A stretch of DNA of 48,006 nt, from positions 1-48,006 of the IMG/VR virus record IMGVR_UViG_2541047905_000004; one strand, 5' to 3'. Below, piece by piece: positions 1 to 48,006 of this stretch; position 1 is the first letter of the stretch; each line of letters opens with the position of its first letter. This DNA is from a virus (taxonomy: Duplodnaviria; Heunggongvirae; Uroviricota; Caudoviricetes). Position numbers and translations under genes: made by a program. The notes under the pieces are model-generated. The model was not told the origin of the DNA, did not search any database, and was given only the letters and a program-made list of their open reading frames with translations.

Positions 1-478
1 GCGCCGGGTTCCCGGCATGTGTCTGGCGGGGGAAGGCTGCATCGTTCTCTGGTGTATCCGGTGTGCGCCAGAACACACCATCGATGGCCAGCAGGGTCAG
101 GCCGCACCAGTGCGGATGCGGCGTGGCGTTATGCCAGAGCTGCGCTGTTTTCGTGAACACGCGGCGGACAGCCTCACTTCCCAGGCGCTGGCGGGCCTGA
201 ATAACGGCACTGGGGGCAACGAAGGGGCGATTGCCCGGCAGCATGATGTCCAGGCGATTCACAATCTGGTGAAGAGGTTCTTTACGCTCAAGCGCCATGC
301 CAACAATACACCAGACCATCATTTCGAGGGGAAGACGGCGCTTGCGTAGCGTTACAGTACCTGATTCGGCAAGGCAACGAGAGATGAGTTCGGGGTCGAG
401 GTAATCCCCCAGAGAAGTCAGTGGGTTACGCAGAGAATCGTAACGGGATACCAGATCAAGAGCCTGTCCAATGTGCAT
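1..478 (-). CDS. insG: IS4-family transposase, N-terminal part (runs off the window start)
   Basis: Minus-strand ORF with ATG at 476-478 (rc). Translation MHIGQALDLVSRYDSLRNPLTSLGDYLDPELISRCLAESGTVTLRKRRLPLEMMVWCIVGMALERKEPLHQIVNRLD... recognised from memory as the IS4 transposase N-terminus. Track ORF 17..349 (+) is its antisense shadow. Confidence 0.75.
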   Translation of the reverse strand, partial: MHIGQALDLVSRYDSLRNPLTSLGDYLDPELISRCLAESGTVTLRKRRLPLEMMVWCIVGMALERKEPLHQIVNRLDIMLPGNRPFVAPSAVIQARQRLGSEAVRRVFTKTAQLWHNATPHPHWCGLTLLAIDGVFWRTPDTPENDAAFPRQTHAGNPA

Positions 479-511
479 AAAAAAATCCGGAAACAAGTGA
501 GCGTTTCCGGA
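479..511 (-). terminator. Hairpin plus T-run immediately 5' of the IS4 transposase ATG (read-through terminator or RBS-sequestering structure)
   Basis: Minus strand reads ATCCGGAAAC-GCTCACTT-GTTTCCGGAT followed by TTTTTT then ATG. 10-bp perfect stem seen directly; function inferred. Confidence 0.4.
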
Positions 512-741
512 TTCTTACACAGCCACTGGATCGGTCAACTGATCCTTAACTGATCGGCATTACCTCCAATAGAGAGCATTTTTACTGTATGTATAACCAG
601 TGTCAATGTATGAAATCCTGCGACCATACATCTCACTGAAGCCATAATGAAGTAGGCTATTCTTTTTGCTATGTGATCATGTAACTTTTGCGGTTAACCT
701 GTGGCTCATTTTTATTTTAGGCGCAGATATAAAAGCAAAAG

Positions 742-933
742 TTATCGTGAGTTTTTAGTACAGATTTTTTTGGATTTACTAATAGTTCCATCATTGCAAA
801 CGAATTTGCCATCAGAGGTACAGTGAGAAACACCTCCCTTTTTCCCTGAGCAGGGATAATTTCTAGCATAGGTAGCTAGTGGGTTTAATAACAAAGAACA
901 TGACAAAACCACAAAAAATACCTTACCAAGCAT
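742..933 (-). CDS. Small secreted or lipoprotein-like hypothetical protein (63 aa), AT-rich
   Basis: ATG at 933 (rc) preceded by GGGAGG; hydrophobic N-terminus [20 protein letters not shown]; Cys-rich mature part; AT-rich relative to the phage core. Sits where int would be expected downstream of cI. Confidence 0.4.
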
Positions 934-948
934 AATTTCCTCCCGGTA

Positions 949-1518
949 CTATTTAACATACTTGACTGTTAAACTTATAATTTTACCAATTATTTCAATG
1001 TCTTCTATCTTACATTCAAAGGCTCTGTTTCCACCCTCGACGAAGATTCTTCCACCGGGTAAACGAGTAATGTCACGGATCGTTATTTCGCCATCAATAC
1101 TTATTACCCATTTACCATCACGTATATCATCAAATTCCTTATCACAAATAAATTCAGAATTATTATCTGTGATTACAAAAAGATTCTTGAATGCCGACGG
1201 TAGAAATTCTCTATCGAAAATATAAAAACCGTCTTCACACAAGGCCCCATCAGATAATACATATTTAGCAACTTCCATAGTATTTGTATTACCTGAAGTT
1301 TGCTTTGAACCATGCCCGGTTGTGAGCCAATTAAGCGAGGTGCCTGTTTCAAGGGCGCACTGGATTACCCATTCTGCTGGGAATGAGTCACGCATGTAGC
1401 GTGTGGCGAGTGTACTTTTAGAGATTCCTAAATGATCGCACAACGCCTGTCGAGTCTTGAATCCATAAGCTTCTACCATGCGCTCTATGGCGCCTCGTCC
1501 GCCTTTCTCCAAATTCAT
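949..1518 (-). CDS. cI: Phage 186-type CI immunity repressor
   Basis: ATG at 1518 (rc) with GGAG upstream (the track ORF starts 6 nt earlier at GTG). N-terminal HTH-like region AYGFKTRQALCDHLGISKSTLATRYMRDSFPAEWVIQCALETGTSLNWLTTG typical of 186-family CI; leftward orientation facing the early operon. Confidence 0.7.
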   Translation of the reverse strand: MNLEKGGRGAIERMVEAYGFKTRQALCDHLGISKSTLATRYMRDSFPAEWVIQCALETGTSLNWLTTGHGSKQTSGNTNTMEVAKYVLSDGALCEDGFYIFDREFLPSAFKNLFVITDNNSEFICDKEFDDIRDGKWVISIDGEITIRDITRLPGGRIFVEGGNRAFECKIEDIEIIGKIISLTVKYVK

Positions 1519-1524
1519 GGTCAC

Positions 1525-1643
1525 TCCAAGTGAACTTTTATCTTGACGATTTCACCGTGCGATCGTATGTTTATGGTGTTCACAAAATACAAACGATCCG
1601 TATTCGTCCTGATTAATCATCATTAAACGAGGAATGTTGCATC
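1525..1643. promoter_or_regulatory. Immunity switch region with rightward lytic promoter candidate; leftward cI promoter and operators expected here
   Basis: -35 TTGACG at 1543-1548, 17-bp spacer, -10 TATGTT at 1566-1571 on the + strand; inverted GTGAAC...GTTCAC around it. A face-to-face pR/pL arrangement is inferred from 186 biology and not resolved here. Confidence 0.45.
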
Positions 1644-1865
1644 ATGAGACCTAACATTTCAATCACTCTTACCACGCCTCATGTGACTATTGAACGCTAT
1701 AGCGAGCTGACAGGGCTATCCATCGATACCATCAATGACATGTTGGCTGATGGACGCCTTATCCGTCACCGTCTGCGCAAAGATAAAAAACGCGAAAAAG
1801 TGATGATCAACATAGCAGCAATGACCGTTGATGCGCTTTCAGAATGCAATCTAAACCTTAATTAG
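1644..1865 (+). CDS. Small DNA-binding regulator at the Apl/Cox position (first gene of the rightward early operon)
   Basis: ATG at 1644; 73 aa, basic; position equivalent to 186 apl / P2 cox. Sequence homology not verifiable by eye. Confidence 0.45.
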
Positions 1866-1897
1866 TTCGATTCTGAAATACATCAGAGGCATTGACC

Positions 1898-2407
1898 ATG
1901 TTTGATTACCAAGTTTCCAAACATCCACATTTTGATGAAGCCTGTCGTGCATTTGCACTGCGCCACAATCTGGTGCAACTGGCAGAACGTGCAGGCATGA
2001 ATGTGCAGATTCTGCGGAACAAGCTGAACCCAGCTCAGCCTCATTTATTAACCGCACCAGAAATCTGGCTGCTTACCGATCTGACTGAAGATTCAACGCT
2101 GGTAGATGGTTTTCTGGCACAGATTCATTGTCTGCCATGTGTACCGATTAATGAGGTGGCAAAAGAGAAACTGCCACATTACGTCATGAGTGCAACCGCA
2201 GAGATCGGGCGTGTTGCTGCAGGTGCGGTGTCTGGCGATGTAAAAACCTGTGCCGGTCGTCGTGATGCTATCAGCAGCATTAACTCTGTAACACGACTGA
2301 TGGCGCTGGCGGCTGTTTCATTGCAGGCCCGTTTACAGGCTAATCCTGCGATGGCGAGTGCAGTTGATACCGTGACTGGCCTCGGTGCTTCATTTGGTTT
2401 GCTGTGA
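1898..2407 (+). CDS. cII: Phage regulatory protein CII (186 CII-like)
   Basis: ATG at 1898 with GAGG 8 nt upstream (track ORF starts at TTG 1892); about 169 aa; second gene of the early operon; sequence of the type I recall as 186 CII. Confidence 0.55.
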
Positions 2408-2414
2408 GGTGCTT

Positions 2415-2615
2415 ATGCTGACGAAAGAACCATCATTTGCATCGCTGCTGGTTAAACAAAGCCCGGCAATGCATTACGGTCACGGCTGGATCATGGGGGA
2501 GGATGGTAAACGCTGGCATCCGTGCCGTTCACAAGATGAATTGCTGGCAGAACTATCTACGAAAAAACGGGGGAACAAATGGCTATTGAAGGCACTGCGG
2601 CGACTGTTCCATTAA
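2415..2615 (+). CDS. Small early protein, possibly Fil-like
   Basis: ATG at 2415 after GAGG (track ORF starts at GTG 2385); 66 aa with HYGHGWIMGEDGKRWHPCRSQDELL; family assignment from memory only. Confidence 0.35.
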   Translation: MLTKEPSFASLLVKQSPAMHYGHGWIMGEDGKRWHPCRSQDELLAELSTKKRGNKWLLKALRRLFH

Positions 2616-2920
2616 GCCCCGGTGAACGCCTGAATGGACTTAATCACATTGCGGAGTTAAGGGCGAAAGTTTTTGGCCTGAATATTGAGTCAGAGCTTGA
2701 GCGGTTTATTAAAGATATGCGTGATTCACGGGATATTAATAGCGAACAAAATAAACGGGCACTGGCTGCCATATTCTTTATGGCAAAAATTCCAGCTGAA
2801 CGTCATAGCATCAGCATTAATGAGCTGACCACTGACGAAAAGCGGGAGTTGATTAAAGCAATGAATCATTTTCGTGCAGTGGTGAGCTTATTTCCCAGAC
2901 GGCTAACCATGCCGAATTAA
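2579..2920 (+). CDS. Hypothetical early-operon protein (113 aa)
   Basis: ATG at 2579 after GGGGGA; overlaps the previous gene end; same-strand operon context. Confidence 0.4.
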   Translation: MAIEGTAATVPLSPGERLNGLNHIAELRAKVFGLNIESELERFIKDMRDSRDINSEQNKRALAAIFFMAKIPAERHSISINELTTDEKRELIKAMNHFRAVVSLFPRRLTMPN

Positions 2921-2987
2921 CCAACTAATGAAATTAATGGCGTAAACCCGCCGGGCATCCCTTTATCTAAATTCAGGAGAATTGATT

Positions 2988-3221
2988 ATGCGTAATATTG
3001 AAACCCTCTCGACCAAAACCGGACCGGATGACGCAGGGCTTAATATTTTACTGACAGAGGCTCGTCTGGAAGAACGCCGGGCAAGGGCTGAAGCAATGGC
3101 AGCTCGCCTTGATAGCCTGGCGTGTCATATCACATCCCGCCAGCTAACCCACGTCGAAGCGGCAGAACTGCTTCGTGTGACTGCTGAAGCAATCCAGAAC
3201 GAAGCGCAGGAGATCCACTAA
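2988..3221 (+). CDS. Hypothetical early-operon protein (77 aa)
   Basis: ATG at 2988, 8 nt after AGGAGA (track ORF starts at TTG 2982). Confidence 0.4.
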   Translation: MRNIETLSTKTGPDDAGLNILLTEARLEERRARAEAMAARLDSLACHITSRQLTHVEAAELLRVTAEAIQNEAQEIH

Positions 3222-3448
3222 TGGCTGATGCAATGGATCTCGTACAGCAGCGCGTTGAAGAAGAACGCCAACGCCATATCCGTGCTGCCCGTGCCAAAAC
3301 GCCGGGCGTGTCCCGCGTGCTTTGCATTGAGTGTGAAGCGCCAATTCCGCCAGCACGCCGCCGTGCCATTCCGGGTGTGCAGCTTTGCATTACCTGTCAG
3401 GAAATCGCAGAGCTGAAAGGCAAACATTACAACGGAGGTGCTGTATGA
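3221..3448 (+). CDS. TraR/DksA-family C4 zinc-finger protein
   Basis: ATG at 3221 after AGGAG; motif CIECEAPIPPARRRAIPGVQLCITCQ...KHY matches the TraR/DksA C4 zinc finger (CxxC-N17-CxxC). Confidence 0.65.
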   Translation: MADAMDLVQQRVEEERQRHIRAARAKTPGVSRVLCIECEAPIPPARRRAIPGVQLCITCQEIAELKGKHYNGGAV

Positions 3449-4302
3449 GCACCATCCTGAAATGGGCGGGAAATAAAACTGCCATAATGTCCGAACTAAA
3501 AAAACATCTTCCTGCTGGCCCGCGACTGGTTGAACCTTTCGCGGGTTCCTGTGCTGTGATGATGGAGACGGATTATCCCAGCTATCTGGTTGCGGATATT
3601 AATCCTGATTTAATCAACCTCTATAAAAAGGTTGCCGCTGATTGTGAATCGTTTATATCTCGCGCCAGAGTTTTATTTGAGATCGCAAACAGGGAGGTGG
3701 CTTATTACAACATAAGGCAGGAGTTTAATTACTCAACTGAAATTACTGATTTCATGAAAGCGGTATATTTCCTGTATCTCAATCGTCACGGTTACCGTGG
3801 TTTATGTCGCTATAACAAGAGCGGGCATTTCAACATTCCCTACGGTAATTATAAAAATCCGTATTTCCCTGAAAAAGAAATTCGCGCATTTGCAGAAAAG
3901 GCCCAGCGAGCAACGTTTATCTGCGCCAGCTTTGATGAAACGCTGGCGATGTTGAAGGCGGGGGATGTGGTGTATTGCGATCCGCCGTATGACGGTACGT
4001 TTTCCGGCTATCACACTGACGGCTTCACTGAAGATGACCAGTATCACCTGGCATCTGTTCTTGAACATCGGTCATCAGAAGGACATCCGGTCATTGTTTC
4101 TAACAGTGACACATCCCTGATCCGTTCGCTGTATCGCAATTTTACTCACCACTACATCAAGGCAAAACGCAGCATCGGTGTGGCAGCTGGCGAGGGTAAA
4201 TCAGCAACAGAAATCATTGCTGTTTCCGGGCCGCGCTGCTGGGTGGGATTTGATTATTCGCGTGGCGTGGATAGTTCTGCCGTGTACGGAGTACGTGCAT
4301 GA
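3445..4302 (+). CDS. dam: DNA adenine methyltransferase (Dam-like, D12 class N6-MTase)
   Basis: ATG at 3445 after GGAGG (track ORF starts earlier). Motifs KWAGNK, FAGSCAV and DPPY in [11 protein letters not shown]...[10 protein letters not shown]...[11 protein letters not shown]. Overlaps the TraR stop and the A start (ATGA-type couplings). Confidence 0.8.
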
Positions 4303-6713
4303 GTCATGCCGATATGAACAACTGCTGCGGCTTTAACGAAGCTGCCGCATCGTTCTCATGGAACAGCTCGAAAAAGGCCATTAACCCTTATCTGGACCCG
4401 GTGGAAGTTGCGCCGGTTTCTACGCTTTCAAACCTGATCACTCTGTACGCTGCCGATAACGAGCAGGAACAGCTGCGCCGTGAGGCGCTGAGTGATCAGG
4501 TCTGGGAGCGTTATTTCTTTAATGAATCCCGTGATCCTGTCCAGCGCGAAATGGAACAGGATAAGCTCATTAGTCGGGCAAAGCTGGCGCATGAGCAGCA
4601 GCGTTTTAATCCGGATATGGTCATTCTGGCGGACGTCAACGCCCAGCCTTCCCATATCAGCAAGCCGCTGATGCAACGTATTGAATACTTCAGCAGCCTG
4701 GGCAGGCCAAAGGCTTATTCCCGCTATTTACGTGAGACGATTAAGCCATGTCTGGAACGACTGGAGCATGTACGCGACAGTCAGCTATCTGCATCTTTTC
4801 GCTTTATGGCAAGCCATGAAGGGCTGGACGGCCTGCTGATCCTGCCTGAAATGAGTCAGGATCAGGTGAAACGCCTGTCCACCCTGGTAGCTGCGCATAT
4901 GAGTATGTGCCTTGATGCCGCTTGTGGCGATTTGTATGCTACCGATGACGTTAAGCCAGAAGAAATCCGCAATACATGGGAAAGGGTGGCAGCGGAAACC
5001 CTGCGTCTGGATGTCATCCCGCCTGCGTTTGAGCAACTCCGTCGGAAAAGAAACCGCCGTAAACCCGTGCCCTATGAACTCATTCCGGGTTCGCTGGCGC
5101 GTATGTTGTGCGCCGACTGGTGGTATCGGAAATTATGGAAGATGCGTTGCGAATGGCGGGAAGAGCAGTTGCGTGCTGTCTGCCTTGTCAGCAAAAAAGC
5201 ATCTCCCTATGTCAGCTATGAAGCCGTGTTGCATAAACGTGAGCAGCGCCGTAAGTCGCTGGAGTTTTTCCGTTCTCATGAACTGGTGAACGAAGACGGC
5301 GACACGCTAGACATGGAGGATGTGGTAAACGCCAGCAGCAGCAACCCTGCGCATCGCCGCAATGAGATGATGGCCTGTGTTAAAGGTCTGGAGCTTATCG
5401 CGGAAATGCGCGGTGACTGCGCCGTTTTCTACACCATCACCTGTCCGTCACGTTTCCATTCCACGCTAAATAACGGCAGGCCCAACCCGACCTGGACAAA
5501 TGCGACGGTAAGACAAAGCAGCGATTATCTGGTCGGTATGTTTGCTGCATTTCGTAAGGCGATGCACAAAGCCGGGTTGCGCTGGTATGGCGTGCGGGTG
5601 GCTGAGCCGCATCACGACGGCACAGTTCACTGGCACCTGTTGTGTTTCATGCGCAAAAAAGACCGCCGCGCCATTACAGCATTGTTGCGTAAGTTTGCTA
5701 TCCGTGAAGACCGCGAGGAGCTGGGCAATAACACGGGGCCGCGCTTTAAGTCTGAGCTGATTAACCCGCGCAAAGGAACGCCGACAAGCTACATAGCGAA
5801 ATACATCAGTAAGAACATTGACGGGCGTGGTCTGGCTGGCGAGATCAGCAAGGAAACGGGTAAATCTCTGCGTGATAACGCTGAATACGTGAATGCCTGG
5901 GCGTCTTTGCATCGTGTTCAGCAATTCCGCTTCTTTGGCATTCCGGGGCGTCAGGCTTACCGTGAACTGCGATTGCTGGCTGGTCAGGCGGTAAGGCAAA
6001 AGGGGGACAAAAAAGCAGGTGCGCCGGTACTGGATAACCCGCGCCTTGATGCCATCCTGGCTGCTGCTGATGCTGGTTGTTTTGCCACCTACATCATGAA
6101 GCAGGGCGGCGTACTGGTTCCCCGTAAATATCACCTCATCAGAACCGCTTATGAAATCAACGAAGAGCCGACCGCCTATGGCGATCACGGCATTCGTATT
6201 TATGGCATCTGGTCACCCATTGCAGAGGGCAAGATCTGCACTCATGCAGTGAAGTGGAAAATGGTTCGTAAAGCCGTTGACGTTCAGGAGGCGGCAGCCG
6301 ACCAGGGCGCTTGCGCCCCTTGGACTCGTGGCAATAACTGTCCCCTTGCTGAAAATTTGAACCAACAGGAGAAAGATAAATCAGCTGATGGGGACACTAG
6401 AACGGACATTAACCGCATGGATGACAAGGAGTTGCACGATTACCTGCACAGTATGAGCAAAAAAGAGCGCCGGGAACTGGCAGCAAGGTTACGCCTGGTT
6501 AAACCGAAACGGCGTAAAGACTACAAACAGCGAATTACAGACCATCAGCGACTGCAGCTCGTCTATGAGCTGAAGTCCAGAGGATTTGATGGTAGCGAGA
6601 AAGAGGTCGATTTACTCCTTCGCGGCGGCAGTATTCCGTCAGGAGCAGGCCTGCGTATCTTCTATCGGAACCAGCGTTTGCGGGAAGATGATAAGTGGCG
6701 GGATCTGTATTAA
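4299..6713 (+). CDS. A: P2/186-type replication initiation protein A (rolling-circle HUH endonuclease)
   Basis: 804 aa; HUH-like VHWHLLCF and tyrosine motif YIAKYISK; position after the early regulators as in P2/186. Confidence 0.85.
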
Positions 6714-6805
6714 TTACGCGGGTTAACAATTCGTGCTCTTAATAATACCAGGCATATCAGGCTGATGAACGTAAAAAAACGTTTTACATCAGTAAGATTA
6801 TTATA

Positions 6806-6825
6806 TACTGTAAATATAAACAGTG
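6806..6825. promoter_or_regulatory. LexA (SOS) box candidate
   Basis: TACTGTAAATATAAACAGTG contains CTG-N10-CAG in an AT-rich spacer, matching the TACTGT(AT)4ACAGTA consensus; 40 bp upstream of the 6866 ORF. Confidence 0.55.
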
Positions 6826-6865
6826 ATTATATATACAGTATTGCTTTGGTGTCATAGGAGGAAAG

Positions 6866-7054
6866 ATGCAGGACTATTTTTTGGAGTCTTTGAAGCTCCA
6901 GCGCATTGATTTTTTTCTTAAGCTTGTAGCGGCTAGTGAGTGTAGTGATGAAGAGAAGGGGCTGGCTCTGCAGTGGGTTTCTGAGTTGACTGATGAACTC
7001 ATGGCAAAAATCAGAACTCACGAATACAACCGCTCAATGGATGTCATCAGTTGA
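6866..7054 (+). CDS. Hypothetical SOS-regulated small protein (62 aa)
   Basis: ATG at 6866 after AGGAGG; first ORF downstream of the LexA box. Confidence 0.4.
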   Translation: MQDYFLESLKLQRIDFFLKLVAASECSDEEKGLALQWVSELTDELMAKIRTHEYNRSMDVIS

Positions 7055-7064
7055 GGTGACTTTT

Positions 7065-7298
7065 ATGCGCATTGAAATAATGATCGATAAAGAGCAGAAG
7101 ATTAGCCAGTCTACCCTGGACGCTCTTGAATCAGAGCTTTACCGCAATCTGCGCCCCCTGTATCCCAAAACGGTAATTCGCATCCGCAAAGGTAGCTCTA
7201 ACGGTGTGGAACTGACCGGACTGCAACTGGACGAAGAAAGAAAACAAGTGATGAAAATTATGCAGAAGGTGTGGGAAGACGACAGCTGGCTGCATTAA
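7065..7298 (+). CDS. DinI-like protein (Tum-type antirepressor candidate)
   Basis: ATG at 7065 after GAGGTGA (track ORF starts earlier); MRIEIMIDKEQ...LDALESELYRNL...KIMQKVWEDDSWLH aligns by eye to E. coli DinI (MRIEV...DALAGEL...ILQETWESADDW). Confidence 0.6.
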   Translation: MRIEIMIDKEQKISQSTLDALESELYRNLRPLYPKTVIRIRKGSSNGVELTGLQLDEERKQVMKIMQKVWEDDSWLH

Positions 7299-7457
7299 GA
7301 AAAGTTGCTGGCGTCTGAACTTGGTTCTGGCGTCAGCAAGGTTGAACAACGAGTACAGTGAGGCGTTAGGTGTGGCGTTTATTTGATGAGTGAACGCCCG
7401 TTCTCCGACAGGTTCGGAGATTAAGGTTGAAACTACGGGCAAAATACCATCTTTTTC

Positions 7458-7883
7458 CTACTTAATTGAGTCCAGTAACAAGTTACAGTTACTCTCATTG
7501 TAGAGAGAACGAGCAATTAGTGTTACCTGCTTTCCATTCATTCCCGGCTTATCCCATAACACAGCTTCTTGCGACGCCACAAATTCAGCATAATCAATTA
7601 TGCGTTGTTCGTGATCTGGTTCCTCATAGCCAAAGTATGAGAGCGCATCGTTGTAAGCGTGGTAAGCTGCTTTCTGTAATATCTTGATATCGGCTGTAGG
7701 TACTTGCCCCGTGTAGCTAGGATCTAATTGTGTGCTACTGCCATAGAATGCACATGAAAGGTAAGATATTGATTTCTGTTGAGCTTTAGTTCCTTTCTCA
7801 TAGTTTTTAGCTGTTACCGCCTGAACTGGGACGCTAACAAAGCTTGCAACCAGAATTAAAATTAATACGTAAAAGCTTTTCAT
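7458..7883 (-). CDS. Secreted hypothetical protein (141 aa), AT-rich moron
   Basis: ATG at 7883 (rc) after GAGG; signal-peptide-like MKSFYVLILILVASFVSVPVQA; AT-rich; opposite strand to neighbours. Confidence 0.5.
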   Translation of the reverse strand: MKSFYVLILILVASFVSVPVQAVTAKNYEKGTKAQQKSISYLSCAFYGSSTQLDPSYTGQVPTADIKILQKAAYHAYNDALSYFGYEEPDHEQRIIDYAEFVASQEAVLWDKPGMNGKQVTLIARSLYNESNCNLLLDSIK

Positions 7884-8155
7884 TTTGACCTCAGCCGAAA
7901 CGTTAGAGAGACTATCGAAATTTGTAAAACCCGTGGCGATTCAGTTTGAGATCCTCCCCCTTACATGATTTTTAATCAAATATATGCTTTTGTAAGCATA
8001 CCTGTTAACCGAATTATTTATTTTTAGAGATCTTCCGACATACTGATTATACCCGCTGAGGAGTTCACCTTGCGTAAAGTCCGATTCGCTTTACTCGTTT
8101 GTGCATGTCTATGCTGCATGAGATTGCATGATCGTTTGAGGATCGTTTTTGCTAA

Positions 8156-8180
8156 GGCCCGCCAGAACTGGCGGGCTTTT
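8156..8180 (+). terminator. Rho-independent terminator-like hairpin with no upstream ORF
   Basis: GGCCCGCCAG-AACT-CTGGCGGGC followed by TTTT on the + strand. Confidence 0.4.
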
Positions 8181-8225
8181 GCGTAGATCATGCACCTGCA
8201 TGAAAACCACTACATAAAGCGGGCA

Positions 8226-8244
8226 GGCGTGGCGGGGATACGAG
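8226..8244. other. Candidate cos (cohesive end) site
   Basis: GGCGTGGCGGGGATACGAG resembles the 19-nt P2-family cos as I remember it (GGCGAGGCGGGGAAAGCAC); location between the replication/tum region and the portal gene is as expected. Confidence 0.3.
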
Positions 8245-8350
8245 CGCGCGGGATGACATAACAGATTGAATTGAAAAATATTGACTAAATGTAAAATGCG
8301 AAGGATATTTAGTCCCTCTATGAAGTTTTAGATATGGAAAATGATAGGTT

Positions 8351-8641
8351 ATGAAAACGATATATAGCTATGATTACCAATACTTGCCTAAAGGGTCCAC
8401 AAGACCAATTGATGACGGAGATATAGTAGGCTGTTCGTCAGAAGAAAATCCTTTTCTTCTACTTCCCAATGTAGGTGATTTTGTCTCTATATGTAATGAC
8501 AATAGTCGGTCTTCGTTTAGTGGTATTGTTAAAACTAGATATTTCACTTATACGAGAATAAGTGAGGAGTGCGTACAATGTTCAATTAATATTGTAGTTG
8601 CAGAATCTGATGTAGATTGGGGTACTCTTATTAAAGAATAA
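8351..8641 (+). CDS. Hypothetical small protein (96 aa), AT-rich, with 4 Cys
   Basis: ATG at 8351; AT-rich; Cys at GCSSEE, ICND and two in ECVQCS could form a small metal-binding fold (inference). Confidence 0.45.
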   Translation: MKTIYSYDYQYLPKGSTRPIDDGDIVGCSSEENPFLLLPNVGDFVSICNDNSRSSFSGIVKTRYFTYTRISEECVQCSINIVVAESDVDWGTLIKE

Positions 8642-8696
8642 TATGGGGCGTCTGCGTAAGTGGGCGCTATTAAAATAAAATGGAATCTTGTAATGT

Positions 8697-9383
8697 ATGG
8701 TTAAATTTAATAATAACTTTGATTTTCCATTGGTAACAATACTGACGGTGTTGCTATTTATATTGGCATATTTTTTTAAACTTGGTGAGGCCGTTTATTT
8801 TGGTTATCCAGCAATACTTATATCATTAGATTTAACGAGTGTTGCGAATATTTCTTTAAAGCTTTTTTTCTATTTTGGTAGTATTGTTATAGGTGTTTTT
8901 AATTTTATTTTGAATGATGGTGCGATTAAACTTAATAAAATTAAGTATGTTCTTTGGATTTTTATTGCCATAACAATATTTTCAGTTTTTTTAAGTTTTA
9001 AGAGGGGGGAGAAAGACTTAGTTAACTATCTTAATGGTGGTCTTTTTGGTATTTGTTCATGGTTGGTGGTAATGTCGTTGTTCAAAACATTTGAACGAAG
9101 TGGTGATTTGATTAATATAGATTTCGTATATGCCATATTAACGGTTTTCTTTATGTCAGTTACTAGTTTTCTTGGAGGGATTAATTATCATAATCAGTTT
9201 GCATCTGTTCTATGGAAAACCTTGGATGGAAAAATAGTAGTTGGAGAATATAACGGCAATTTTGTTTTAAAGAAATGCGTAGATGGCAAAGGGGTTTTTA
9301 GCTTTAGAGAGGTAAATGGTAGCGAATTTGTTGAGGTTGTAAATTATGTGGAAGGGAAGTTTAATCCAAGGTGCAATAGATAA
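8697..9383 (+). CDS. Hypothetical polytopic membrane protein (228 aa), AT-rich
   Basis: ATG at 8697; about five hydrophobic helices (LVTILTVLLFILAYFF, FYFGSIVIGVFNFIL, VLWIFIAITIFSVFLSF, LFGICSWLVVMSLF, VYAILTVFFMSVTSFLGGI) followed by a roughly 60-aa soluble tail. Confidence 0.5.
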   Translation: MVKFNNNFDFPLVTILTVLLFILAYFFKLGEAVYFGYPAILISLDLTSVANISLKLFFYFGSIVIGVFNFILNDGAIKLNKIKYVLWIFIAITIFSVFLSFKRGEKDLVNYLNGGLFGICSWLVVMSLFKTFERSGDLINIDFVYAILTVFFMSVTSFLGGINYHNQFASVLWKTLDGKIVVGEYNGNFVLKKCVDGKGVFSFREVNGSEFVEVVNYVEGKFNPRCNR

Positions 9384-9406
9384 AGGTGCCAGGGCACCTT
9401 TCAAAT
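9384..9406. terminator. Bidirectional hairpin between convergent genes
   Basis: AAAGGTGCC-AGG-GCACCTTT between the stops of the 8697..9383 ORF and the portal gene. Confidence 0.4.
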
Positions 9407-9411
9407 AATTA

Positions 9412-10437
9412 TTAAAGTTTGTAGGCGTCAAAACTGATAACAGTTTTACCTAACCATATATTCAATTCTTCAAATCTTTTTTGCAATGATGTTAGTTCAT
9501 TTCTTACAAAAACATTACTCGCCTTCTCCACATCCCCAAACCCTCCAACATTATTAGGCATAATCCCCATCATTTGCGGCGGCACGCGGTGCGCAGCCAT
9601 CATGTCATCCCGGCTCACGTTCTTGATATTCAAAAATTCATCCTTTGCCGCGACTTCTGACAGAGGAATAATCTGAAGCCCGTCCTTTTTGCCGTTAGGC
9701 GAGTACATAAACAGGTTGCGGAAGTTGCCTGGACCTTTGGCGCTTTTCATCGCGTTGCGGAGGTTGTTCACATCTTCCTGGTTCTGCGCGGCGTCGGTCA
9801 TATACATGATGAAGCCAGCATGACTGCCGTTAATGTAATACTTTCGACGGAACAGCGTGGCGGACTCATTGAGCAGGGCGGACGGAATGGCAGAAAGATA
9901 GCCGGGCAAGCCGTAGATCTCCTGGTTAATGTCCGGTTCCATCAGATGAAAAATGCTGCCTTTCGTGAACTGATATGGCTGGGTTGTCATACCGTATTGC
10001 ACAAACCAGTAGGTATCCAAGTCTAACCCGCGTCGGGTGTATTTTGCCAGCGCAGGCTCAAGGGCGATAACTTCACCGAAGCGGTTCGTGCGTTTCTCCA
10101 GGTAGGCGTTACCAAAAACCAAATAGTCCTGCACAAAACGCGAAAAAGCCTGCTGGCTGAGCAGCGGGTGAGGGATGTAGGTGCTGGTCAAAATGTTGCA
10201 TTTCACCGCAATCGGTGAGCTGTGATGCACGGCGGCACGGAAGGTTCGTGCCAGCCCGTCAAAGCTGACGGGCGGCTCATACCAGCGATCCATCTGTACG
10301 CATTCCACATAGTCCAGCAGTTCGCGGCGGTCCAGAACAGGAACGGGATCACCGAAGCTGAATGCTTCGGCTGAAGTCTGGCTTTTATGCTGGTTCTGGT
10401 TCGTCGACGCAGCGCGGTTCTTCTTACTCTTTCCCAT
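9412..10437 (-). CDS. Q: Portal protein (P2 gpQ-like)
   Basis: ATG at 10435-10437 (rc) overlapping the P stop (TGATG); track ORF starts 3 nt earlier at TTG. MGKSKKNRAAS...; size and order Q-P as in P2/186. Confidence 0.85.
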   Translation of the reverse strand: MGKSKKNRAASTNQNQHKSQTSAEAFSFGDPVPVLDRRELLDYVECVQMDRWYEPPVSFDGLARTFRAAVHHSSPIAVKCNILTSTYIPHPLLSQQAFSRFVQDYLVFGNAYLEKRTNRFGEVIALEPALAKYTRRGLDLDTYWFVQYGMTTQPYQFTKGSIFHLMEPDINQEIYGLPGYLSAIPSALLNESATLFRRKYYINGSHAGFIMYMTDAAQNQEDVNNLRNAMKSAKGPGNFRNLFMYSPNGKKDGLQIIPLSEVAAKDEFLNIKNVSRDDMMAAHRVPPQMMGIMPNNVGGFGDVEKASNVFVRNELTSLQKRFEELNIWLGKTVISFDAYKL

Positions 10438-12203
10438 CAAAAAATCTCCACAATATTGCTGGCATTGGCGGACTCGCCCTGCAGCGGTTCGTTAAACAGT
10501 GCGTGCATTGTTGCCCAGGCCAGATCGGCATGGCTGGCTTCTTCGCTGCGGCTGGCTTCATAGGTCGGGCGGTTGCCGCTGGCGGTGGTGGCGCGACGGA
10601 TTGCCATGAATGACTGCGCAATGTCGGTGTGTCCGGCGTCAAATTCCAGGCGGCGGTGACTGATAATGTCGTAGGCCTTGAGTACCAGGGCGTTTTTAAC
10701 GTTGGGGTTGTAGACAAACTCCCGGACGGCAGGAAAAAACGCTTTCACGTTCTCGTAAACCCCGTGACCGACGCCGGTCGAGTCGATGCCGATATAGGTC
10801 ACGTTATACTGTTCGGTCAGTTTTTTGATGGCGTCAGCCTGGGCGCGGAAGTCCATTCCGCGCCACTGGTGACGCTCAAGAATGCGGAACTTACCGCCCT
10901 GCACGGCTGGCGGTGCCACCACCACGCATCCGGCGCTGTCGCCGTTCTGCGTACCTTTTGCCGGGTCATAACCGATCCACACTTCGCGCCAGCCAAACGG
11001 GCGCAGGGCCAGTGCATGAAAGTCGGTCCAGACTTCCCAACTGTCCACCATGCACGCCTGCAGCTCGCTGAGCGGGAACACGGACGCGAGATCGTCCACG
11101 AACTCACACATCAGCAGGTTCTGGTATTCGTCCGGGCTGTATTCCATGCGCAACTGGTCAAGGTCGAACAGGTTACAGCCGCCGCGCACCGCATCTTCTA
11201 CGGTGACTATCTGGCGGTATTGCCCGTCTGCGCACAGCAGGCCGGGGGCCAGATTGCTGTGGGACAGGTCGATGTCCACCTTGTCGGCTTTGTTGCGTCC
11301 ACGGTTGAACAGCGCACCGGACCAGAACGGATAAGCACTGTGGGTCAGGCTGGATGGCGTGGAAAAATAGGTTTGTCGCCATTTTTTGTGAATAGCCATA
11401 CCGGAAGCCACTTTGCGCAGCTCCTGGAATTTCGGGATCCAGAAATATTCATCCAGATACAGGTTGCCGTGGTAACTCTGGGCAGTGCGGGCATTGGTGC
11501 CGAGGAAGTAAAGCGTGGCCCCGTTAGGAAGCACCATCGGATCACCTTTCAGCTCCACCTCGACTTCTTTGGCAAAATCGATGATGTACTGCTTAAAGAC
11601 GTGAGCCTGTGCCTTACTGGCAGAAAGGAAAATCTGGTTACGTCCGGTAAGCAGGGCGTCAATCAGGGCTTCACGGGCAAAATAGAAGGTCGCGCCGATC
11701 TGGCGTGACTTTAGCAGGTTGCGGATGCGGTTGGTTTTTCCGGCTTCCCACCAGTGGCGCTGGTAGTTGAACATGGAGGAATGGAAGATTTCTTCCAGCT
11801 TCTCAATCTGTTCATCGGTGAAAACGTTCTTTTCCGGCTGACGACGCGGGCCTTTGTTGCGGTTGGCGACGTTAGGGTTTAAGTCGGCTTCGTTGCCGCC
11901 ATTGTTAAACTTGCCGATCCGCGCGTGGCGCTCCGACTGGCGCGCCAGCAGGTCAATCTCTTTGAAATCTTTCCCTTCTTTGTGCTCCTTCATAATGAGC
12001 TGGCAGTAGCGTGCGGCGGTGGTGAGCTGCATCTGATCCAGCGGCCCATAGTCACCCCACTTGTCGCGTTTTTTCCAGCTGTGAACGGTTGCAACTTTCT
12101 CGCCCAGCATTTCAGCAATGCGGGCTACGCGGTATCCCTGAAAGTACAGCAGCATGGCCTGCCGACGGGGATCGAGATCTGCGGGTGTCAGTGTGGTGTT
12201 CAT
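10437..12203 (-). CDS. P: Terminase large (ATPase) subunit (P2 gpP-like)
   Basis: 588 aa, ATG at 12203 (rc); divergent from O as in P2; N-terminus MNTTLTPADLDPRRQAMLLYFQGYRVARIAEMLG recalled as gpP-like. Confidence 0.85.
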   Translation of the reverse strand: MNTTLTPADLDPRRQAMLLYFQGYRVARIAEMLGEKVATVHSWKKRDKWGDYGPLDQMQLTTAARYCQLIMKEHKEGKDFKEIDLLARQSERHARIGKFNNGGNEADLNPNVANRNKGPRRQPEKNVFTDEQIEKLEEIFHSSMFNYQRHWWEAGKTNRIRNLLKSRQIGATFYFAREALIDALLTGRNQIFLSASKAQAHVFKQYIIDFAKEVEVELKGDPMVLPNGATLYFLGTNARTAQSYHGNLYLDEYFWIPKFQELRKVASGMAIHKKWRQTYFSTPSSLTHSAYPFWSGALFNRGRNKADKVDIDLSHSNLAPGLLCADGQYRQIVTVEDAVRGGCNLFDLDQLRMEYSPDEYQNLLMCEFVDDLASVFPLSELQACMVDSWEVWTDFHALALRPFGWREVWIGYDPAKGTQNGDSAGCVVVAPPAVQGGKFRILERHQWRGMDFRAQADAIKKLTEQYNVTYIGIDSTGVGHGVYENVKAFFPAVREFVYNPNVKNALVLKAYDIISHRRLEFDAGHTDIAQSFMAIRRATTASGNRPTYEASRSEEASHADLAWATMHALFNEPLQGESANASNIVEIF

Positions 12204-12249
12204 GGCACAAACCTACAGCCTTGAATGAAGGCTTTCCCCGCCTGCGGTT

Positions 12250-12267
12250 TGTGTGGTTCTCGGTACA
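12250..12267. promoter_or_regulatory. Late promoter activator site (TGT-N12-ACA, Ogr/B type) in the P/O divergent region
   Basis: TGT at 12250-12252, 12-nt spacer, ACA at 12265-12267; about 80 bp upstream of the O ATG. Confidence 0.4.
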
Positions 12268-12345
12268 AATACCGCGCATTGTTTCACTGCCCCCATCACC
12301 GCAACCATAAGGCTCCAGTAAGTTTTTTCTAACGGAGCACGGCTC

Positions 12346-13179: not shown

Positions 13180-13195
13180 TGGAGCACAAAACCCG

Positions 13196-14254: not shown

Positions 14255-14257
14255 TCC

Positions 14258-14908
14258 ATGAGCCTGAGTCCCGCACGGCAGCATCGCCTGCGCGTTCAGG
14301 CTGAACAGGCCGCCCGTGAGGGCGGCAGTGTTCGCCACGCGTCGGGCTATGACCTGATGCTGCTGCAACTGGCGGAAGACCGTCGCCGTCTCAAGGGCGT
14401 TCAGTCCACGGTGAAAAAAGCGGAAATAAAGGTGGAGCTGCTGCCGAAATATGCCGCCTGGGCGGAGGGCGTCCTGGCTGCCGGAGGCGCTCAACAGGAT
14501 GACGTGCTGATGTATGTGATGCTGTGGCGCATTGATGCCGGAGATTATGCCGGGGCGCTGGAGATCGGGCGTCATGCCCTGCGTCATGGCTGGGTGATGC
14601 CGCTGGGTAACCGCAACGTGCAGACCGTGCTGGCAGAGGAAATGGCAGATGCAGCGCAGAGCGCAATGCTTGCCGCCACCGGCTTTGATGCCGATCTGTT
14701 GCTGCAGACGCTGGAGCTGACAGACGGTCTGGATATGCCGGACCAGTCACGGGCGCGTCTGCATAAAGCGATTGGCGCTGTCCTGAGTGAAAGCAATCCG
14801 GCTTCCGCCCTTAATCATCTCAACCATGCGTTACAGCTCGATCCCCGCTGTGGCGTGAAAAAAGACAAACAGCAGCTGGAGCGCAGACTGCGCAATGACA
14901 GCCGCTGA
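14258..14908 (+). CDS. M: Terminase small/endonuclease subunit (gpM-like)
   Basis: ATG at 14258 after GGAG; 216 aa; follows N. Confidence 0.85.
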   Translation: MSLSPARQHRLRVQAEQAAREGGSVRHASGYDLMLLQLAEDRRRLKGVQSTVKKAEIKVELLPKYAAWAEGVLAAGGAQQDDVLMYVMLWRIDAGDYAGALEIGRHALRHGWVMPLGNRNVQTVLAEEMADAAQSAMLAATGFDADLLLQTLELTDGLDMPDQSRARLHKAIGAVLSESNPASALNHLNHALQLDPRCGVKKDKQQLERRLRNDSR

Positions 14909-22160: not shown

Positions 22161-23557
22161 GCACAAAATTTTATACCCTGCTGACGGATATTGGCGCGGC
22201 GAAACTTGCCAGCGCCGCCGCGCTCGGTGTGCCTTTAAAAATTACCCATATGGCGGTCGGCGATGGCGGCGGAACATTGCCAACGCCGGACGCAAAGCAG
22301 ACAGCATTAGTAAATGAGAAACGCCGGGCTGCGCTGAATATGCTCTATATCGACCCGCAGAACAGCAGCCAGATTATTGCTGAACAGGTGATCCCTGAAA
22401 ACGAGGGCGGTTGGTGGATACGTGAAGTGGGCCTGTTTGATGAGTCCGGGGCATTGATTGCCGTGGGCAACTGCCCGGAAAGCTATAAGCCGCAACTGGC
22501 TGAAGGCAGCGGGCGTACCCAGACCGTGCGCATGGTGCTGATTACCAGCAGCACGGACAATATCACCCTGAAAATCGACCCTGCCGTAGTGCTGGCAACC
22601 CGCAAGTATGTGGATGACAAGGTACTGGAGCTGAAGGTGTACGTAGATGACCTGATGGCAAAACATCTTGCTGCACAGGACCCACATTCACAGTACGCGC
22701 CAAAAGCCAGCCCGACATTTACCGGAACCCCCAAAGCGCCAACGCCAGCGGCGGGGAATAATACCACGCGGGTTGCGACCACTGCGTTTGTACAGGCGGC
22801 ACTGACGGCCCTTATTAATGGTGCGCCAGCCACGCTGGACACGCTGAAAGAAATAGCCGCAGCCATTAACAATGATCCGAATTTCAGTACCACCATTAAC
22901 AATGCGCTGGCACTAAAAGCACCGTTGTCGAGTCCGGCACTCACCGGAACGCCAACAGCCCCCACGGCGGCGCAGTCGGTCAACAATACACAGATTGCCA
23001 CTACGGCTTTTGTGAAATCGGCGATTGCAGGAATGGTGGGTTCTGCACCTGCTGCACTGGATACACTGAACGAACTGGCGGCGGCACTGGGGAATGATCC
23101 GAACTTTGCCACGACAATGCTTAATGCGCTGGCAGGTAAACAACCGCTGGACAATACGCTTACCAATTTGAGTGGAAAGGATGTGGCTGGTCTTCTCGCA
23201 TACCTTGGTTTGGGAAAAGCGGCTAAAAGGAATGTAGGGACAGGGGCGAATCAGATACCTGATATGGGTAGCTTCACGCTTTCTGTTTCAGGTACTGGAT
23301 ATCAAAAATTACCATCAGGTTTTATTCTTCAGTGGGGCTCAATCGGCGCACCAGGCATTGCACAGGATGTAGTAACCCATTTCCCGATTGCATTTCCAAA
23401 CAGATGTCTGCGTGTTTTGGTCTCACAAGACTACACACCAGATAGCGGGGCTGTTGGTTATATTGCCTGTGCAGGTTTTAGTCCCGACCCGGTTAAATTT
23501 ATATCCAGAGCCAGTACTCCTGGCCTCGGCGCTTCATTTTTAGCGTTAGGCTGTTAA
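22157..23557 (+). CDS. H: Tail fibre protein H, variant 1 (constant N-terminal part plus Mu/P1 S-type C-terminal module)
   Basis: 466 aa; N-terminus [18 protein letters not shown]...MAVGDGGG typical of P2 gpH; C-terminal 114 aa (from 23216) unique to this copy, with [13 protein letters not shown]. Confidence 0.85.
23193..23218. other. Candidate serine-invertase crossover site (hix/gix/cix/pix-like), left
   Basis: TTCTCGCATACC-TT-GGTTTGGGAAAA: two 12-bp imperfect inverted half-sites (9/12) around a central dinucleotide; inverted copy of the right site with 25/26 identity; lies exactly at the constant/variable junction of H. Confidence 0.55.
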
Positions 23558-23578
23558 TTTAGCTATATGGAGTGAAAA

Positions 23579-24019
23579 ATGAATTACATATATTCCGCGA
23601 CTACAAACTCTTTCTATCCGCTGGAGATGAAAGAGGATTACACTCAAGCTGACTCATGGCCAGATGATGCTGTTGAAGTTGATGAGCAAGTGTATATTGA
23701 GTTTTCCGGATTACCGCCGAAAGGAAAAATCCGTATCGCTGGAGAAAATGGTTTTCCTGCATGGTCTGAAATTCCACCACCAACACATGAGGAACAGATT
23801 GCTGCAGCCGAACTGGAAAAGCAGCAACTGATTAATCAGGCCAACGATTATATGAACAGTAAACAATGGCCTGGTAAAGCGGCTATTGGCCGGCTGAAAG
23901 GTGAGGAACTGGCGCAATATAATTTGTGGCTGGATTATCTGGACGCACTGGAACTGGTCGATACTTCCGGTGCGCCAGATATTGAATGGCCTACGCCTCC
24001 GGCAGTTCAGGCCAGATGA
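23579..24019 (+). CDS. Tail fibre assembly protein (Tfa / gpG-like), cognate to H variant 1
   Basis: ATG at 23579, 21 nt after the H stop, with GGAGTGA; C-terminal WLDYLDAL...WPTPP Tfa-type motif. Confidence 0.75.
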   Translation: MNYIYSATTNSFYPLEMKEDYTQADSWPDDAVEVDEQVYIEFSGLPPKGKIRIAGENGFPAWSEIPPPTHEEQIAAAELEKQQLINQANDYMNSKQWPGKAAIGRLKGEELAQYNLWLDYLDALELVDTSGAPDIEWPTPPAVQAR

Positions 24020-24584
24020 CGTCCGGCGCTGTGCTGGTATCTGTTGCCGTCACCGCGTCAATGTAATCCAGCACAGCGTTAAGTCGGGTGTTTTCTGGCT
24101 GCGTCAGCTTCCGCCCAGCCTGTAATTTCAGTTGAATCAGACTGATGGAAGCCATTGCAGCATCAATCAGCGACTGGCGCTGTGCTTCTGCCGCTTCTAC
24201 TGCGGCGCTATGCTGTGCCTCGGTATCCGTCACCCATTTCTCACCATCCCATTTATCGTATGGCGTTAACGGTGAAAGCGTGACATAACCGTCTTTGATG
24301 GCACCGATATAATCCACTGTAACAGCTGCGCCATTTTCAGTTGAGTAAACGGTCTCATTGCGATGGTCTTCTTCATGGCTCCATCCCTTACCCGTAAATA
24401 CTGCCACTTTTCCCGGAATGTTTTCGCCCGGGTCAATACCAGTGGAACAGGCGGGTATACTTACGCCAGTATTAATATATTCATCAGACCAGCCGGTATA
24501 TTCATACGTTACTGCATTATAATAAAAACAACGCATATCGCCCGGCACTGTAGCCAGCCCATTTTCATCAAAAACAGGTTTCAT
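23991..24584 (-). CDS. Tail fibre assembly protein (Tfa / gpG-like), cognate to H variant 2
   Basis: ATG at 24584 (rc) overlapping the H-variant-2 stop (TAATG); C-terminal VLDYIDAV...WPELP Tfa motif; 3' end overlaps the other Tfa by 29 bp. Confidence 0.75.
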   Translation of the reverse strand: MKPVFDENGLATVPGDMRCFYYNAVTYEYTGWSDEYINTGVSIPACSTGIDPGENIPGKVAVFTGKGWSHEEDHRNETVYSTENGAAVTVDYIGAIKDGYVTLSPLTPYDKWDGEKWVTDTEAQHSAAVEAAEAQRQSLIDAAMASISLIQLKLQAGRKLTQPENTRLNAVLDYIDAVTATDTSTAPDVIWPELPEA

Positions 24585-26164
24585 TATTTAGCCCTCACCA
24601 GAAAGTTAAATGCAATATTTCGTGGACGGGTTTCTGTATCTACATTTCCACTAATTTCACCATAACGTTTAACACTACGAGAGCTAAGAGCTCGTAGTGA
24701 GGAAGGCACCTTAAGACCGGGTTCGTCCGTTTTAACTATTCCCCCGTCACCGTATGTGGCCAGTATTCCTGGGTTTACTCCCTCCCGTGCACTTCCTGCG
24801 GCAAGCCCGTCCCCCGTCCACAACTCCATATTGTGTGCATGATCCATAATTGTGTGTGATTGCCCTGAAAGTAGGGTACGTCCGACATCAATCCCGCGCC
24901 CATCATCCCAGATACGAATGAAATCACCCCGTGCGTCAGGTAATGCTAGCGCCGGAAACACTTTCGCCAGCACAGGGTAATCAGTGGCAGAGAATTTCGC
25001 GCCGTTGAACTTCAAAAACACCATACTGGACCAACTGTCGATTACAGTATTTGGCATTGCGGCGGACGGCCAGAAGAACGGAACGCCAATAGCTGGAGCA
25101 CCTTCTCCCAAACCAAGGTATGCGAGAAGACCAGCCACATCCTTTCCACTCAAATTGGTAAGCGTATTGTCCAGCGGTTGTTTACCTGCCAGCGCATTAA
25201 GCATTGTCGTGGCAAAGTTCGGATCATTCCCCAGTGCCGCCGCCAGTTCGTTCAGTGTATCCAGTGCAGCAGGTGCAGAACCCACCATTCCTGCAATCGC
25301 CGATTTCACAAAAGCCGTAGTGGCAATCTGTGTATTGTTGACCGACTGCGCCGCCGTGGGGGCTGTTGGCGTTCCGGTGAGTGCCGGACTCGACAACGGT
25401 GCTTTTAGTGCCAGCGCATTGTTAATGGTGGTACTGAAATTCGGATCATTGTTAATGGCTGCGGCTATTTCTTTCAGCGTGTCCAGCGTGGCTGGCGCAC
25501 CATTAATAAGGGCCGTCAGTGCCGCCTGTACAAACGCAGTGGTCGCAACCCGCGTGGTATTATTCCCCGCCGCTGGCGTTGGCGCTTTGGGGGTTCCGGT
25601 AAATGTCGGGCTGGCTTTTGGCGCGTACTGTGAATGTGGGTCCTGTGCAGCAAGATGTTTTGCCATCAGGTCATCTACGTACACCTTCAGCTCCAGTACC
25701 TTGTCATCCACATACTTGCGGGTTGCCAGCACTACGGCAGGGTCGATTTTCAGGGTGATATTGTCCGTGCTGCTGGTAATCAGCACCATGCGCACGGTCT
25801 GGGTACGCCCGCTGCCTTCAGCCAGTTGCGGCTTATAGCTTTCCGGGCAGTTGCCCACGGCAATCAATGCCCCGGACTCATCAAACAGGCCCACTTCACG
25901 TATCCACCAACCGCCCTCGTTTTCAGGGATCACCTGTTCAGCAATAATCTGGCTGCTGTTCTGCGGGTCGATATAGAGCATATTCAGCGCAGCCCGGCGT
26001 TTCTCATTTACTAATGCTGTCTGCTTTGCGTCCGGCGTTGGCAATGTTCCGCCGCCATCGCCGACCGCCATATGGGTAATTTTTAAAGGCACACCGAGCG
26101 CGGCGGCGCTGGCAAGTTTCGCCGCGCCAATATCCGTCAGCAGGGTATAAAATTTTGTGCTCAT
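24584..26164 (-). CDS. H: Tail fibre protein H, variant 2 (same constant N-terminus plus tail-collar-type C-terminal module)
   Basis: 526 aa; first ~347 aa identical to variant 1; unique C-terminus (coded 24584..25105) contains LPDARGDFIRIWDDGRGID...SGQSHTIMDHAH, typical of phage tail collar domains. Confidence 0.85.
   Translation of the reverse strand: MSTKFYTLLTDIGAAKLASAAALGVPLKITHMAVGDGGGTLPTPDAKQTALVNEKRRAALNMLYIDPQNSSQIIAEQVIPENEGGWWIREVGLFDESGALIAVGNCPESYKPQLAEGSGRTQTVRMVLITSSTDNITLKIDPAVVLATRKYVDDKVLELKVYVDDLMAKHLAAQDPHSQYAPKASPTFTGTPKAPTPAAGNNTTRVATTAFVQAALTALINGAPATLDTLKEIAAAINNDPNFSTTINNALALKAPLSSPALTGTPTAPTAAQSVNNTQIATTAFVKSAIAGMVGSAPAALDTLNELAAALGNDPNFATTMLNALAGKQPLDNTLTNLSGKDVAGLLAYLGLGEGAPAIGVPFFWPSAAMPNTVIDSWSSMVFLKFNGAKFSATDYPVLAKVFPALALPDARGDFIRIWDDGRGIDVGRTLLSGQSHTIMDHAHNMELWTGDGLAAGSAREGVNPGILATYGDGGIVKTDEPGLKVPSSLRALSSRSVKRYGEISGNVDTETRPRNIAFNFLVRAK
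25103..25128. other. Candidate serine-invertase crossover site, right
   Basis: TTCTCCCAAACC-AA-GGTATGCGAGAA; resembles hixL as I recall it (TTCTTGAAAACCAAGGTTTTTGATAA); inverted relative to the left site. Confidence 0.55.
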
Positions 26165-47579: not shown

Positions 47580-47809
47580 CTTTTGCTTTTATATCTGCGC
47601 CTAAAATAAAAATGAGCCACAGGTTAACCGCAAAAGTTACATGATCACATAGCAAAAAGAATAGCCTACTTCATTATGGCTTCAGTGAGATGTATGGTCG
47701 CAGGATTTCATACATTGACACTGGTTATACATACAGTAAAAATGCTCTCTATTGGAGGTAATGCCGATCAGTTAAGGATCAGTTGACCGATCCAGTGGCT
47801 GTGTAAGAA

Positions 47810-47842
47810 TCCGGAAACGCTCACTTGTTTCCGGATTTTTTT
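47810..47842 (+). terminator. Hairpin plus T-run 5' of the IS4 transposase ATG (mirror copy)
   Basis: Mirror of 479..511. Confidence 0.4.
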
Positions 47843-48006
47843 ATGCACATTGGACAGGCTCTTGATCTGGTATCCCGTTACGATTCTCTGCGTAACCCAC
47901 TGACTTCTCTGGGGGATTACCTCGACCCCGAACTCATCTCTCGTTGCCTTGCCGAATCAGGTACTGTAACGCTACGCAAGCGCCGTCTTCCCCTCGAAAT
48001 GATGGT
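47843..48006 (+). CDS. insG: IS4-family transposase, first ~54 codons (mirror copy, truncated by window end)
   Basis: ATG at 47843; MHIGQALDLVSRYDSLRNPLTSLGDYLDPELISRCLAESGTVTLRKRRLPLEMM... Confidence 0.75.
   Translation, partial: MHIGQALDLVSRYDSLRNPLTSLGDYLDPELISRCLAESGTVTLRKRRLPLEMM

Follow-up and report, generated by a model that had tools for sequence, protein, structure and literature searches.

A 186-like prophage in which cI is followed by the end of an insertion sequence, and in which no integrase gene can be found, raises a simple question: has int been lost from this genome, or does it lie beyond the element? An earlier note on this DNA favoured loss. The stretch analysed here (48,006 nucleotides, hereafter the window) is the entire draft scaffold KE701826.1 (48,006 bp) of assembly GCA_000460555.1, so that the edges of the window are the ends of the scaffold, and they lie inside a repeat (IS4). 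The absence of the integrase gene is thus explained by where the sequence ends, the scaffold stopping inside the IS4 repeat. More generally, a gene missing at the edge of an IS-ended draft scaffold is not evidence of gene loss.

The IS4 end and the cI-orf63 unit

The arrangement at the left edge of the window was as the earlier note had described it. The cI gene (949..1518, minus strand) is followed by an ORF of 63 aa (742..933, minus strand), by non-coding DNA given as about 180 bp (179 bp by our count) and by an IS4 end with an outward-reading transposase. cI encodes a 186-type CI repressor of 189 aa (Pfam Phage_CI_repr and Phage_CI_C; labelled 'phage repressor protein CI'), and an intact gene for an Apl/Cox-like excisionase-repressor lies at 1644..1865 on the plus strand (PHROG 575, 'Cox-like excisionase and repressor', E=6e-31). 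The 186-type immunity region (CI, Apl/Cox and CII), GpA and P2-type head and baseplate genes are present in the window.

The left-end portion of IS4 covers positions 1..562 (minus strand) and comprises the terminal inverted repeat and the start of the transposase gene. The repeat, ccttaactgatcggcatta, occupies 544-562, and the transposase ATG is at 478 on the minus strand, the first 159 codons (478 to 2) reading out of the left edge. This N-terminal part of the transposase matched Pfam Nterm_IS4 (E=7e-34) and NCBIfam transpos_IS4_1; the catalytic DDE part lies beyond the window. Bases 1-562 matched a 1426-bp IS4 copy (L029) at 561 of 562 nt, and the RefSeq label on matching copies is 'IS4-like element IS4 family transposase / insG'. 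The element has the orientation of the cI-orf63-int transcription unit.

The 63-aa ORF, named orf63 here, belongs to the YdcA family (WP_001513672.1; PHROG 6000). It matched NCBIfam NF007463 (PRK10040 group) with 114.6 bits for a cutoff of 93; the label PF27300:YdcA came from a precomputed gene index, the local copy of Pfam giving no match. orf63 starts 15 nt past the cI stop behind a strong ribosome-binding site (GGGAGG), and inspection of its product revealed an N-terminal hydrophobic signal-like segment and four Cys residues in the mature part. The index lists the exact protein in 19,603 blocks; its gene stands between cI and int in the intact loci shown. A literature search on YdcA was uninformative. 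As far as can be judged from its sequence, orf63 is a cargo (moron) gene that encodes a putative small secreted Cys-rich protein and is normal in the cI-int slot; it is probably co-transcribed with cI and expressed in the lysogen. The slot is variable and holds orf63, GmrSD + HEPN, a SNIPE-type nuclease, a 662-aa AAA_15 ATPase, or nothing.

Between orf63 and IS4 lies the orf63-int intergenic spacer (563..741, minus strand), which is non-coding over its 179 bp and contains no convincing ORF. Among the matches listed, more than 20 complete E. coli genomes carried it with 100% identity. Both orf63 (35.9% GC) and the spacer are AT-rich, at 36-37% GC versus 50.1% in the prophage arm. A sigma-70-like site (TTGACA-17-AAAAAT, 10/12) is found at 606-578 on the minus strand, just upstream of the hairpin described below.

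That the window contains no tyrosine-recombinase-like ORF, as had been reported, was borne out. The cognate 350-aa Int gave a best E of 0.96 in tblastn, and PF00589 was absent from the precomputed Pfam labels of all called genes at 563-36164, the rest of the window mirroring that stretch. No serine recombinase or other integration module was found elsewhere in the window, and a search for fragments of int and attL with the int/attL-region DNA of a relative gave no match in it. The lack of a tyrosine recombinase carries little weight, since the unique prophage sequence in the window amounts to only about 24.5 kb, which the palindrome presents twice.

A scaffold folded at its tail-fibre segment

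Comparison of the two arms of the scaffold (315-23215 and 25106-48006) showed each to be the exact reverse complement of the other: no mismatch interrupts the 22.9 kb, and position x pairs with 48321-x. The first arm mismatch falls at 23216, and only the centre of about 1.9 kb (23216-25105) is asymmetric. The right arm carries mirrored copies of cI (46803-47372) and orf63 (47388-47579), and the right scaffold edge is a mirrored IS4 end (47759..48006, plus strand), the exact reverse complement of 315-562; the identical IS4 junction therefore closes the scaffold at both ends. The left part of the prophage (about 23 kb) is present twice and the right part, about a third, is missing: no part of the window covers the invertase, sheath, tube, tape-measure, D, ogr or attR regions. 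Because the scaffold ends at IS4 and folds back, the lack of sheath, tube, tape-measure, D, ogr and int is uninformative about the genome.

The hinge of the palindrome is an invertible tail-fibre segment (Hv, tfa, tfa', H'v; 23216..25105), which contains the variable end of H, a pair of tail-fibre assembly genes facing in opposite directions and another variable fibre end. Its left crossover site, a 26-bp sequence of Hin/Gin/Cin type (TTCTCGCATACC-TT-GGTTTGGGAAAA; 23193..23218), coincides with the constant/variable boundary of the tail-fibre gene H and with the inner end of the left arm; we take it to resemble the hix, gix and cix sites. Two such Hin/Gin/Cin-like 26-bp sites, inverted relative to each other, bound the segment (23193-25128). 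Full-length fibre variants of 466 aa (22157-23557, plus strand) and 526 aa (24584-26164, minus strand) are both present, which means that both orientations of the segment existed in the sequenced culture. The inner junctions, Hc-Hv and H'v-Hc, genuinely arise from the invertible segment lying in one or the other orientation.

Beyond the segment, S40 and CE0021a carry a serine invertase ('recombinase family protein') and then sheath, tube, tape-measure, D and ogr, and the right end of the prophage is attR adjoining ybjL. The window and this genuine right-end flank part at the core of the mirrored crossover site. No gene for the tail-fibre invertase, which is present in complete relatives, was found in the scaffold.

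Other cargo is carried in the arms. A 598-aa ABC-type ATPase with a C-terminal DUF3226 region is encoded at 17780-19576 (minus strand), mirrored at 28745-30541 (plus strand), between the tail gene S and the baseplate gene V, and is absent from the S40 prophage. Its best PADLOC matches were AriAB (PARIS) and GajA (E=1e-23 to 1e-26, partial coverage), which makes it a candidate single-gene anti-phage cargo. Two further cargo genes, at 7458-7883 (minus strand; PHROG 7437) and 8697-9383 (plus strand; PHROG 35408), had no Pfam, NCBIfam or PADLOC matches. They lie in the GpA-portal hotspot, where relatives carry a Thoeris-like TIR, GmrSD, AIPR, a retron RT, HipA or DarT-macro.

The uninterrupted site and the targets of IS4

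The phage DNA that borders IS4 was then compared with complete genomes. Positions 563-3000 were 99.9-100% identical in every complete E. coli genome listed, the match always starting at 563, and 448 complete E. coli genomes covered at least 80% of this query. The annotated order in S40 and H1 is rcdA, integrase (350 aa), a 188-bp gap, the 63-aa hypothetical protein and CI. The sequence at the site reads ...gtacagccat aaaaaatgc/cctccaatagagagcattttt... in both, and the ATG of int is found 9 nt to the left of the counterpart of window position 563. Contrary to the earlier note, which had IS4 and the ORF in the integrase position, the ORF and the spacer do not lie there; intact relatives have both of them between cI and int. 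The empty site of two loci, L001 and L023, reads cat-AAAAAATGC-CCTCCAATAGAGA-GCATTTTT.

The closest relative is L023 (a 20-kb locus, OZ038772.1), whose cargo genes (141 aa, 228 aa and 598 aa) are the same as those of the window. It aligned to window positions 563-17883 with 100.000% identity, ungapped, over 17,321 bp; past the equivalent of 563 it continues with gcattttttATG, the int ATG, the 350-aa integrase gene and rcdA. This identity over 17.3 kb indicates that the IS4 insertion is recent and that the visible prophage is undecayed. In this test for decay (563-17883 against OZ038772.1), the IS4 insertion was the only visible lesion. The domestication that had been proposed is not supported by a prophage of which 17.3 kb is 100% identical to an int+ prophage beside rcdA, with no sign of decay.

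Several side results came from the same comparisons. One apparent case of natural int loss, L008 (CP088580.1), was rejected, as tblastn found a full-length, 100% identical int there and the gap was one of gene calling. The int gene (WP_000290937.1) occurs in thousands of assemblies. The cI/orf63 region had no deposited phage record at megablast level. Some relatives carry extra genes between int and rcdA (L013, L014/L015 and L011), namely a SocA_Panacea pair, an 89-aa ORF and DUF4917. PMC13586616 describes a minor integrase-att hotspot, which these extra genes fit.

On the int-sense strand the uninterrupted site contains a hairpin, AAAAAUGCUCUC-UAU-UGGAGGGCAUUUUUU, followed directly by AUG. 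In the uninterrupted relative (L001, 5975-6050; this corresponds to window 563-612 together with the int start that the window lacks), the int leader hairpin had a dG of -21.7 kcal/mol (z=-4.95) and a 13-bp stem, and was bounded by runs of A and of U. The int Shine-Dalgarno sequence forms the 3' arm of the hairpin, the 5' arm of which lies inside the spacer seen in the window. These features suggest that the hairpin may act as a terminator or as a translational mask regulating Int. The IS4 insertion splits it.

The target rule of IS4 was derived from 36 IMG/VR loci with this IS4 end (L024-L059). Exact duplications of 12-14 bp flanked 12 of the 14 complete IS4 copies in IMG/VR, and one copy had a duplication with a single mismatch. 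The copy in L056 has no duplication and joins the flanks of two different targets, the left flank being the target of L055, which indicates IS4-IS4 recombination. An A-run and a T-run enclose the pseudo-palindromic targets, many of which are plainly intrinsic terminators (one terminator-like example is AAAAAACGC-CACCGAAAAGGTG-GCGTTTG). The profile of 30 distinct flanks showed C at +1 (26/30), C at +4 (25/30), G at +14 (19/30) and T at +17 to +20 (20-24/30). All strong positions are found in the window flank (C+1, C+4, G+14 and T+17-21), and the uninterrupted site (AAAAAA-TGC-CCTCCAATAGAGA-GCA-TTTTT) makes up a whole, symmetric IS4 target. Striking specificity in the target arms has been described for IS4-subgroup elements (PMC2266710). 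A literature search turned up no paper giving an IS4 target consensus. Mayaux et al. reportedly gave one in 1984, AAA-N20-TTT.

From this rule, the target-site duplication is predicted at 563..575 (12-13 bp, CCTCCAATAGAG[A]), its second copy falling outside the window; on the minus strand the predicted duplication carries the int Shine-Dalgarno sequence (GGAGG). The predicted int-TSD-IS4 junction is ...CATAAAAAATGCCCTCCAATAGAG(A)/TAATGCCAGTCAGTTAAGC. The observed IS4/phage junction, searched as a 40-mer, had zero matches in genome, viral and metagenome contig collections, and neither the observed nor the predicted int-side junction was present in 5,426 complete E. coli genomes.

Another IS4 copy, independent of this one, was found abutting CCTCCAGTGGAGAGCATTT in an IMG/VR contig (L036) that also ends in IS4. 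The phage is a different P2-like phage, with a CI 43-63% identical, and its IS4 site is apparently homologous to the int-leader site of the window. The idea that the int-leader hairpin of P2/186-like prophages is a recurrent hot target of IS4, which would make IS4 a repeatable and potentially reversible prophage lock, is a rather doubtful conjecture, and so is its wider form, in which IS4 would home preferentially to bidirectional intrinsic terminators.

Origin of the junction and comparison with known systems

Simple transposition of IS4 into the int leader hairpin of an intact prophage is the likely origin of the junction, with int, attL and rcdA beyond the 1.4-kb element and on another scaffold. 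IS4 would have landed by ordinary cut-and-paste transposition in a preferred hairpin (A-run, pseudo-palindrome, T-run), 9 nt upstream of the int start, and int, attL and the host gene rcdA would stand on its far side. We infer that int is intact there, on a side of the insertion that is out of view. The duplication of 12-13 bp would restore CTCTATTGGAGG before int, without the 5' arm of the hairpin or the upstream promoter-like site. The insertion would also uncouple int from upstream transcription of the pL/pE type and from the promoter-like site at 606-578, and this uncoupling would lower Int synthesis and excision, even with Apl/Cox intact. Given the polarity of insertion sequences, an IS4 in the same orientation should cut int off from leftward transcription. 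An excision defect through polarity is plausible. Of the relation drawn earlier between IS4 and cI-orf63-int, the interruption of the leftward unit stands. The loss of int and attL, caused or marked by IS4, does not: the scaffold ends inside IS4, and the junction lies 9 nt before the int ATG in a canonical target.

A different history would be an IS4-linked deletion, either as an adjacent deletion or through IS4-IS4 recombination, by which int and attL were removed and the prophage was left locked in and domesticated. The window is indeed without int or attL sequence, but it stops in IS4 because the scaffold does, and the absence of int is uninformative. Rearrangements of this kind exist, as one of the 14 IS4 copies (L056) has no duplication, and the far side of the element was not recovered from the collections searched; yet the junction lies in a complete canonical target, the other half of which is present in the empty-site allele. 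The undecayed 17.3 kb identical to an int+ prophage, and a large survey (PMC13586616), in which 98% of P2 intervals had integrases, also speak against a deletion, which we consider unlikely. Still less credible, to the point of being highly implausible, is that the IS4-phage junction is an assembly chimera and that no IS4 stands beside the prophage. Although the scaffold has at least one probable mis-join, the fold-back, the junction is base-precise both at the IS4 terminus and at a flank with the target profile, as a random mis-join would not be.

The palindrome could in turn be physically real, that is, an inverted duplication of the left half made by the invertase and bounded by two inverted IS4 copies, in a grossly rearranged or defective prophage. 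The deposited scaffold has that structure, and the Hc-Hv and H'v-Hc junctions are precise recombination products at the crossover core. However, a culture with both orientations yields exactly these junctions, and an assembler can chain them. The arms do not differ at a single position over 22.9 kb and both scaffold ends stop in a repeat. Moreover, no complete E. coli genome among those searched continues on the same strand past the tail-fibre segment into the mirrored arm, S40 and CE0021a having invertase and sheath there. Exchange between inverted sites on sister chromosomes leads to dicentric products, which also counts against a real palindrome. We regard such a structure as very unlikely. 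The palindrome is very probably an assembly fold-back from a culture with mixed segment orientations, not a physical 23-kb inverted duplication; the assembler would chain both segment-orientation junctions into Left-Segment-Left(rc). The fold-back distorts any gene count or 'complete prophage' reading of the window, and a palindromic scaffold of this sort can make half a prophage look whole but odd.

Returning to simple transposition as the preferred reading, region 1-948 is a canonical IS4 in a canonical 186/P2-like prophage, with no departure from known kinds, and the event is a routine IS insertion in a prophage regulatory region. Should int be silenced, the 186-like prophage of this strain would be fully intact yet non-excising, which would represent a very early step of domestication. 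By-products of modest value are the empirical target profile of IS4, with its terminator-like hairpins, and the hairpin that may mask the int ribosome-binding site.

The tail-fibre segment resembles those of Mu (G/Gin), P1 (C/Cin) and e14 (P/Pin) in its constant N-terminal fibre part with two alternative C-terminal parts, in its opposed assembly proteins, in its 26-bp crossover sites and in the neighbouring serine invertase, found here in complete relatives. Unlike these systems, the scaffold has the mirrored constant side where the invertase side belongs, most likely through mixed-orientation assembly. The IS4 end is like IS4 of E. coli (1426 bp, insG; IS4 family/subgroup) in its terminal repeat, transposase N-terminus, nucleotide sequence (561/562 nt) and type of target, with nothing different detectable in a comparison that covers 562 bp of the element. 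Like the accessory and defence hotspots of P2-like phages (PMC9122126; PMC13586616), the cI-int slot has variable contents; its occupant here differs in that orf63 matches no PADLOC defence model. Finally, the prophage as a whole is like the 186/P2-like (Peduovirinae) prophages that lie between rcdA and ybjL. It shares with them the 186-type CI, Apl/Cox, CII, Fil and GpA, the portal, terminase, P2 capsid, baseplate and tail-fibre genes in canonical order, and the placing of cI and int on the leftward unit. It differs from them in having YdcA-like cargo between cI and int, which are directly adjacent in L021, and in having IS4 inserted 9 nt upstream of int.
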